Below, piece after piece: positions 8,273-8,858 of a DNA stretch of 36,507 bases. The notes beneath the pieces were generated by a model. It was not told the DNA's origin, made no database searches, and worked only from the letters and a program-made list of their open reading frames with translations. Where the stretch lies: IMG/VR virus record IMGVR_UViG_2563366882_000002. One strand, written 5' to 3'. This DNA comes from a virus. Lineage: Duplodnaviria; Heunggongvirae; Uroviricota; Caudoviricetes. The position numbers and the translations under genes were made by a program. Numbering within the stretch: the stretch's first letter is position 1; every line of letters begins with the position of its first letter.

Positions 8273-8365
8273 TTACGCTGATTAACAATTCGTGCTCTTA
8301 ATAATACCAGGCATATCAGGCTGATGAACGTAAAAAAACGTTTTACATCAGTAAGATTATTATAT

Positions 8366-8383
8366 ACTGTAAATATAAACAGT
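8366..8383. promoter_or_regulatory. LexA box (aCTGTaaatataaaCAGt) overlapping a candidate -10
   Basis: CTG-N10-CAG with AT-rich spacer, strong match to the SOS-box consensus; TTTACA -35 candidate at 8342..8347. Confidence 0.6.
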
Positions 8384-8425
8384 GGTTATGCATACAGTAT
8401 TGCTTGTGGTGTCATAGGAGGAAAA

Positions 8426-8614
8426 ATGCAGGACTATTTTTTGGAGTCTTTGAAGCTCCAGCGCATTGATTTTTTTCTTAAGCTTGTAGCGGCTAGTGAG
8501 TGTAGTGATGAAGAGAAGGGGCTGGCTTTGCAGTGGGTTTCTGAACTAACAGATGAACTCATGGCAAAAATCAGAACCCACGAATACAACCGCTCAATGG
8601 ATGTCATCAGTTGA
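8426..8614 (+). CDS. small protein in the SOS operon, candidate Tum-like antirepressor module
   Basis: 62 aa from ATG 8426 with AGGAGG RBS; the longer 8324 start would contain the LexA box; function inferred from position only. Confidence 0.4.
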   Translation: MQDYFLESLKLQRIDFFLKLVAASECSDEEKGLALQWVSELTDELMAKIRTHEYNRSMDVIS

Positions 8615-8624
8615 GGTGACTTGT

Positions 8625-8858
8625 ATGCGCATTGAAATAATGATCGATAAAGAGCAGAAGATTAGCCAGTCTATCCTGGACGCCCTTGAATCCGAGCTTT
8701 ACCGCAATCTGCGCCCCCTGTATCCAAAAACGGTAATTCGTATCCGCAAAGGTAGCTCTAACGGTGTGGAACTGACCGGACTGCAACTGGACGAAGAAAG
8801 AAAACAAGTGATGAAAATTATGCAGAAGGTGTGGGAAGACGACAGCTGGCTGCATTAG
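8625..8858 (+). CDS. DinI-family protein
   Basis: 77 aa; MRIE...DAL..EL.R...KQ...I.Q.WE.D.W pattern matches E. coli DinI; GAGGTGA RBS. Confidence 0.7.
   Translation: MRIEIMIDKEQKISQSILDALESELYRNLRPLYPKTVIRIRKGSSNGVELTGLQLDEERKQVMKIMQKVWEDDSWLH

Follow-up and report, generated by a model that had tools for sequence, protein, structure and literature searches.

A split tumA/tumB operon under a LexA operator in a P2/186-like prophage of Escherichia coli

The tum locus and its two genes

The stretch analysed here, IMG/VR virus record IMGVR_UViG_2563366882_000002 (36,507 nucleotides, called the window in its full length), is a segment of the E. coli chromosome in which a complete P2/186-like prophage extends from int (1-1053, minus strand) to ogr (33401-33652). 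Directly 3' of gene A, as in coliphage 186, lies a tum operon with two small open reading frames (ORFs): ORF1, of 62 amino acids (aa), and ORF2, of 77 aa and belonging to the DinI family. The module is the split tumA/tumB variant found in PSP3 and Fels-2, and very likely serves SOS induction in an E. coli prophage of the Fels-2/DuoHS type (P2/186-like, Peduoviridae). An initial annotation, made from the letters alone, had proposed a LexA-controlled Tum-like and DinI-like module with the 186 arrangement after gene A, and both the position and the layout of promoter and LexA box agree with it. The features concerned are:

5852-8272, same strand as both small ORFs: gene A, followed by a 153-nucleotide (nt) spacer and then ORF1
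8342-8347, plus strand: candidate -35 TTTACA of the tum promoter, read from the sequence, 17 nt before TACTGT
8365-8370, plus strand: candidate -10 TACTGT, the left arm of LexA box 1, by analogy with the -10 of 186 p95
8365-8384, strandless: LexA box 1, TACTGTAAATATAAACAGTG, from pattern, consensus and position weight matrix (PWM) scans
8380-8399, strandless: LexA box 2, CAGTGGTTATGCATACAGTA, PWM score 14.4 bits, the fourth best site of the window
8416-8421, plus strand: Shine-Dalgarno AGGAGG of tumA, read from the sequence, 4 nt 5' of ORF1 and kept in relatives
8426-8614, plus strand, stop codon included: tumA, encoding a putative antirepressor of 62 aa that is homologous to the N-terminal half of Tum
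8613-8616, plus strand: Shine-Dalgarno GAGG of tumB, read from the sequence, overlapping the tumA stop codon, 8 nt 5' of ORF2
8625-8858, plus strand, stop codon included: tumB, 77-aa DinI-family protein
1449-2024, minus strand: cI, 186-type immunity repressor and presumed TumA target (stop 1449-1451; likely start at 2018, 189 aa)

The TGA of tumA (8612-8614) is followed by a 10-nt gap to ORF2, and the two modules are not fused, unlike in 186, where the antirepressor module forms the N-terminal part and the DinI-like module the C-terminal part of one 146-aa Tum, and internal starts also give the DinI-like part alone. The suspicion that the Tum equivalent is split here proved right, and the arrangement is a documented one. 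In Fels-2 and PSP3 tum is split in two by a stop codon, and in PSP3 the antirepressor activity resides in the upstream gene (Lemire et al. 2011, PMC3121763); the authors refer for this to Bunny et al. 2002 and to information received personally from G. Christie. In the PSP3 record the tumA entry reads 'similar to 5' end 186 tum; UV induction of prophage', the tumB entry 'similar to dinI and 3' end of 186 tum', and the Fels-2 record labels its DinI-like STM2726.1 'similar to TumB'.

ORF2 was expected to be a DinI-family gene, and Pfam places it there with a full-length match (DinI, PF06183; E=1.3e-22; 80.4 bits versus a cutoff of 24.2; profile positions 1-63 of 63). It also matches phrog_189 at positions 71-148, residues 71-145 of 186 Tum with 41% identity (E=9e-25), and the E. 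coli DinI structure 1GHH (E=3.6e-6). According to the 186 annotation, the C-terminal part of Tum is also made alone, from an internal GTG, as 'truncated Tum'. TumB is most likely the counterpart of the C-terminal half of Tum and of this 'truncated Tum', and not the inducer; judged by its family membership, it most likely modulates RecA filaments or SOS timing. Four related P2-like phages, ENT90, YenM_324, ESSI-2 and ev015, have a LexA box and a TumA-like ORF, located between gene A and the portal gene, and carry no DinI gene. The DinI gene is an optional part, which supports TumA as the essential effector.

The 62-aa ORF with a strong ribosome-binding site (RBS) also stood up, start codon included. 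A 96-aa ORF beginning at 8324, present in the mechanical ORF list, was rejected because it would contain the operator and because members of the family always begin with M-Q-D. ORF1 shares 98% identity with Fels-2 STM2728 and has a single strong match in PHROG, to phrog_698, a family of unknown function. To relate it to 186 Tum we used a hidden Markov model (HMM) of the ORF1 family, built from ORF1 and 29 diverse relatives, which matches Tum residues 5-48 (35.7 bits; E=2e-7 at Z=1e6). It also picks up stand-alone Tum-like ORFs from Yersinia and Erwinia, with 59 bits for YenM_324, 38 bits for YenM_06.16-2 and 30 bits for ENT90. A phmmer search of 1.84 billion representatives returned 66 relatives of ORF1, nearly all of them stand-alone proteins of 55-75 aa; no fused protein of Tum length was among them, and for that reason the link from ORF1 to 186 Tum needed the profile. 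Aligned by hand and with MAFFT, ORF1 and Tum have in common the pattern RI/V-D/E-hh-A-K/R-L ... C ... ALxW/L-hxE-L. A stand-alone Yersinia 'tum protein' is weakly matched in tblastn both from ORF1 (E=4) and from the N-terminus of 186 Tum (E=5e-3 to 8e-3). Pattern, tblastn bridge and HMM together support homology between ORF1 and the N-terminal half of Tum. Of the two alignments to Tum and DinI suggested as a check, that of ORF2 succeeded directly, while that of ORF1 gave nothing in BLASTP and emerged with the family HMM.

The AlphaFold2 model of TumA is a two-helix hairpin (helices 2-23 and 28-61; predicted local distance difference test score, pLDDT, 87) with a near-invariant Cys26 in its turn. 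Foldseek with this hairpin found generic helical hairpins only, none at E<0.001.

The naming of tumA in the databases is uneven. RefSeq E. coli and most phage records examined label the gene 'hypothetical protein', whereas one UniRef name and one Klebsiella phage record have 'levan regulatory protein'. Upstream starts (84-106 aa), which would take in the operator, are used in many gene calls, and in YenM_324 and ESSI-2 the TumA-like ORF is unannotated.

The LexA operator and the candidate tum promoter

A near-consensus SOS box over a candidate promoter had been noticed upstream of ORF1, and scoring it was proposed as a check. Box 1 starts 93 nt past the gene A stop and overlaps the candidate -10. 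It is the sole CTGT-N8-ACAG in the window (chance expectation for that short pattern, 0.46 per window) and the sole match to the 20-nt consensus at up to 3 mismatches, a threshold at which 100 dinucleotide-preserving shuffles gave 0 matches. In the PWM scan it is the top site of the window, at 23.9-24.3 bits, which puts it on a par with uvrB and recA; the background averages -27 bits. The promoter layout is that of 186, in which the annotated p95 reads TTCACA-18 nt-TACTGT, as compared with TTTACA-17 nt-TACTGT in the window; the annotated -10 of p95 is the first 6 nt of the 186 LexA box, and likewise TACTGT is the left arm of box 1. The -35 TTTACA is kept in Fels-2, SopEPhi, 813R9 and DuoHS.

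We also scanned related Peduoviridae loci (Fels-2, SopEPhi, 813R9, DuoHS, 186, PSP3, two Yersinia phages, ENT90, ESSI-2 and ev015). A near-consensus LexA box lies immediately 5' of the TumA-like ORF in 10/10 loci, with constant TACTGT and ACAGT arms, and the DNA around the boxes is mostly unalignable between groups of loci.

The initial annotation was right about box 1 and wrong in taking it for the whole operator, since it missed a second, overlapping box. Box 2 (8380-8399) overlaps box 1 by 5 nt, the two 16-nt cores sharing 1 nt. When the 56-nt operator was compared by blastn with plasmids, it matched small Col-type plasmids just 5' of the colicin N (cna) and cloacin genes. Over the 36-nt double box (8366-8401) it is identical to the colicin N and cloacin operators at 31 of 36 positions, and the -35 aligns too. 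The shared element of the cna and cloacin DF13-type operators has the form ACTGTA..CAGTGGTTAT...TACAGTATT. A bacteriocin gene follows these operators, whereas the gene following in the window is that of the antirepressor, and the spacing from -35 to box is 8 nt shorter in the window, with the consequence that box 1 overlaps the -10. The double box is found again in Fels-2 and SopEPhi; in SopEPhi 33 of its 36 positions are kept, versus 10/17 and 7/15 in the adjoining flanks. A single LexA box is present in 186, PSP3, the Yersinia phages, ENT90, ESSI-2 and ev015.

By this comparison the tum operator is a colicin-type double SOS box, with two boxes overlapping beside the promoter. Colicin operons bind two LexA dimers and are very tightly repressed, which avoids untimely expression of a product lethal to the producer (PMC2994835). 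The operator in the window is probably also bound by two LexA dimers on its overlapping boxes, the occupancy of box 2 being predicted from its sequence, and we infer that a double operator would give very tight repression and a high SOS threshold.

CI, characterized relatives and the route to induction

The repressor encoded by cI had been called 186-like, and it is. CI carries the Pfam domains Phage_CI_repr and Phage_CI_C (the N- and C-terminal domains of 186 CI), and shares 33% identity with 186 CI from end to end; it also matches PDB 2FJR and 2FKD, both structures of 186 CI. A Peptidase_S24 match in its C-terminal part is sub-threshold (16.3 versus 23.3 bits; E=0.008), and no stretch passes alone. 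Domain content thus indicates a 186-type partner repressor that is predicted not to cleave itself. In 186, it is the binding of Tum that inactivates CI (Shearwin et al. 1998, as cited in later papers).

The closest characterized relative is DuoHS, a prophage of E. coli HS with the same rcdA-ybjL integration site and gene order. Its CI is identical to that of the window (189/189), TumA (ECHS_RS04495) and TumB (ECHS_RS04500) match at 61/62 and 76/77 residues, the operator at 35/36 positions, and the nucleotide identity of the module is 96.8%. DuoHS differs in having other cargo genes between tumB and the portal gene, and in a few substitutions. In this prophage, an in-frame deletion of tum (ECHS_RS04495) abolished both mitomycin C lysis and viral foci, with an SOS response still seen in the deletion strain, and a lexA(G85D, Ind-) background likewise abolished mitomycin C lysis and viral foci (PMC12055606, the Phollow paper). 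We mapped the deletion primers to the ATG and TGA of the 62-aa ORF; the dinI-like gene and its RBS are left intact, the GAGG being kept in primer NHR28. The experiments suggested by the initial annotation, mitomycin C induction after deletion of the small ORF and a lexA(Ind-) background, had therefore already been done in DuoHS, where induction was blocked, and the antirepressor-dependent SOS induction that it predicted is verified there, with an identical CI.

Other characterized or annotated systems show the same design with variations. The Salmonella phages Fels-2 (STM2728, STM2726.1) and SopEPhi (orf10, orf11) have the same split operon after gene A and the same double SOS box, with TumA 98% and 89% identical to that of the window, respectively; their CI proteins are just 41-43% identical, with the likeness mainly in the N-terminal domain, and int directly abuts cI, unlike in the window. 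PSP3 also has tumA and tumB under a LexA box after gene A, and differs in its single box, a TumA too diverged for the profile of the window family, and a longer cI (861 nt by annotated coordinates, about 286 aa). The SOS operon of 186 (p95, tum, orf97) shares the position after gene A, the LexA box over the -10 TACTGT and the type of CI; it has one LexA box versus two in the window, its TumA module is about 20% identical, and orf97 follows tum, where the window has an unrelated convergent gene. More distantly, the dinI-antirepressor-irsA operons of the lambdoid phages Gifsy-1 to Gifsy-3 place a small antirepressor and a DinI homologue under a LexA box and leave the repressor uncleaved (Lemire et al. 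2011), but dinI comes first and both the antirepressors GfoA/GftA and the repressors are of other families.

Taken together with these systems, the module would work as follows. In an undamaged cell, LexA would sit on the operator, which covers the -10 region as well as the start of the tum promoter, and keep this promoter off. DNA damage would activate RecA, LexA would cleave itself, and the tum promoter would be turned on to make TumA and TumB. TumA would then bind the 186-type CI and block its binding to the CI operators, freeing the early lytic promoter with CI uncleaved, and TumB would modulate RecA or SOS. The direct contact between TumA and CI is postulated here by analogy with 186 Tum.

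A number of points weigh against this interpretation or soften it. A strict sigma-70 consensus scan of positions 8200-9100 called no promoter, and the tum promoter, assigned only by its likeness to 186 p95, is a candidate. The PWM was our own, put together from 19 E. coli LexA sites that were not drawn from a database. In the left arm of box 2 a G replaces the critical C of CTG, and the box scores only 14.4 bits. As for ORF1, BLASTP gave no alignment to 186 Tum, Pfam no family, and a PDB sequence search no relative of solved structure; its homology to Tum draws on a profile of 30 sequences, and the same profile fails to detect PSP3 TumA. A terminator scan of positions 8200-9100 found no terminator, and none of canonical form follows tumB. 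In DuoHS, a polar effect of the in-frame deletion on the translation of tumB is formally conceivable. Finally, the dependence of induction on tumA and on a cleavable LexA was shown in the near-identical DuoHS, not in this prophage copy.

Could the DinI-like ORF2 be the real inducer, acting on RecA or on CI, with ORF1 unrelated or non-functional? The databases would lead one to think so, since they name ORF2 alone ('SOS induction modulator', 'DinI') and leave ORF1 hypothetical, and ORF1 has no pairwise similarity to Tum. The profile, however, ties ORF1 to the N-terminal half of Tum; ENT90, YenM_324, ESSI-2 and ev015 keep the box and the TumA-like ORF in the absence of a DinI gene; deletion of ORF1 alone abolishes induction of DuoHS; and the antirepressor activity of PSP3 is in the upstream gene. 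We therefore regard this explanation as very unlikely. No more credit is due to a lambda-like scheme, in which RecA-stimulated self-cleavage of CI would induce the prophage and the LexA-controlled operon would merely modulate SOS. It can appeal to the weak Peptidase_S24-like match in the C-terminal part of CI (E=0.008), but that match stays under the Pfam cutoff in a protein with the domains of 186 CI and matches to 2FJR and 2FKD; deletion of tum blocks the induction of DuoHS despite an identical CI, and 186 CI itself, according to the papers citing Shearwin et al. 1998, is inactivated through binding by Tum.

That the CTG-N10-CAG motif arose by chance in AT-rich DNA between genes, and regulates nothing, has next to no probability. 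The short pattern alone would be expected at a rate of 0.46 per window, but the full 20-mer was never matched in the shuffles, its score is like that of recA, and its position is kept across 10 diverged phage loci with differing flanks. It is rather more conceivable, although still improbable, that the module is intact and inert, in a prophage that is cryptic or defective elsewhere. The cargo adjoining the operon is unlike that of DuoHS, which leaves some room for this; on the other hand, the P2-like gene set from int to ogr is complete with no obvious truncation, and for CI, TumA, TumB and the operator the identity to the inducible DuoHS is 97-100%. We thus retain the reading of the module as an SOS-induction operon acting through TumA.

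The comparison of relatives also bears on how TumA and CI pair. TumA is 84-100% identical across Fels-2, SopEPhi, DuoHS, 813R9, Cartapus, several Klebsiella phages and Yersinia MLG42, and the CI alleles paired with this near-invariant TumA are only 39-56% identical to the CI of the window. In the CI alignment an N-terminal stretch, SKST[LM]A[NT]R..RD[ST]FPA[ED]W[VI]IQCALETG.SL.WL.TG.G, is nearly invariant, and the linker and C-terminal domain diverge; 186 CI departs exactly in this conserved stretch (RGAISYDFAAH). The pattern suggests that TumA contacts the N-terminal domain of CI and might work on prophages that differ in their CI allele. A shared operator specificity would also explain the conserved CI N-terminus, and the pattern fits both readings.

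Further LexA-like boxes and the prophage setting

Outside the tum operator, and around it, the window contains the following features:

1083-1102, minus strand (context 1040-1130): LexA-like box TACTGTATGTATAACCAGTG, 23.6 bits, as good as the tum box
10056-10075: LexA-like box TGCTGGACATGCATACAGTA, 19.3 bits, near the uvrD and ruvA scores
8865-8899 and 8927-8977: two stable hairpins between tumB and the DUF4145 gene, a possible operon boundary (low confidence)
8987-9727, minus strand: DUF4145 protein gene, convergent to tumB, weak PADLOC match to PD-T7-4 (E=1.6e-5)
10169-11083: HipA_C-like kinase gene, PADLOC candidate system PDC-M03A (E=2e-122)
11080-11820: HIRAN-domain gene, PADLOC candidate system PDC-M03B (E=3e-93)
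33730-33808, minus strand: rybB, host small RNA gene (Rfam RF00110, 105 bits), about 80 nt past ogr, at the right prophage-host junction

The box near int reads, on the minus strand, TTGACA-CTGGTTATACATACAGT-AAAAAT, a promoter-like TTGACA-N17-AAAAAT, and lies about 30 nt 5' of the likely int start (ATG at 1053, RBS GGAGG). It is identical in DuoHS (at 3335 of that locus), its region is 95% conserved in prophages of the Klebsiella phage 4LV2017 type, and it is absent in Fels-2 and SopEPhi, where int abuts cI. We predict that it may form part of an SOS-controlled int promoter. The box at 10056-10075 is about 95 nt 5' of the HipA_C-like/HIRAN pair and is borderline, with about 0.1 chance matches per window at 19.3 bits.

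The cargo between tumB and the portal gene (8987-11820) resembles anti-phage defence; it is unlike the cargo at the same position in DuoHS, Fels-2 and 186 (orf97). PADLOC assigned no family to ORF1 or ORF2. The region containing the two hairpins (8865-8977) has an RNA fold energy of -45.4 kcal/mol (z=-4.35), and no canonical T-run comes after either hairpin. In the tum region Rfam gave no RNA family, the host RybB being the sole match in the window. The location of rybB at the right junction points to an attachment site at or adjoining this gene. The right flank (ybjL, ybjM, grxA) was matched in 5420/5426 E. coli genomes. The 524-bp module itself is present in 1125 of the 5426 complete E. coli genomes, about one fifth, and in 67 phage records.

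The operon and its split were already known, from the annotation and literature of PSP3 and Fels-2 and from the genetics of DuoHS; what we add are refinements, namely the double SOS operator, the LexA box at int, and the pairing of one TumA with many CI alleles, none of which we found stated in the literature searched. They could mean that the induction wiring of Fels-2/DuoHS-type prophages is more elaborate than that of 186, with a double operator exchanged with Col plasmids that sets a high, delayed and bistable threshold, a LexA box at int that couples excision to SOS, and a TumA that targets the N-terminal domain of CI and cross-induces co-resident prophages. As a whole this is a tentative proposal, drawn from sequence comparison, about which we remain more doubtful than convinced.

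The mechanism is established for 186, PSP3, Fels-2 and DuoHS, and in that respect the window adds no new biology. Its practical use is to flag tumA, mostly labelled 'hypothetical protein' in RefSeq and the phage records examined, and to give three small refinements that can be tested. The module would set the timing of the lytic switch after DNA damage, as caused by antibiotics or inflammation, in a prophage type that is very common in E. coli, Salmonella and Klebsiella, and the lytic switch of such prophages drives phage-mediated gene transfer.

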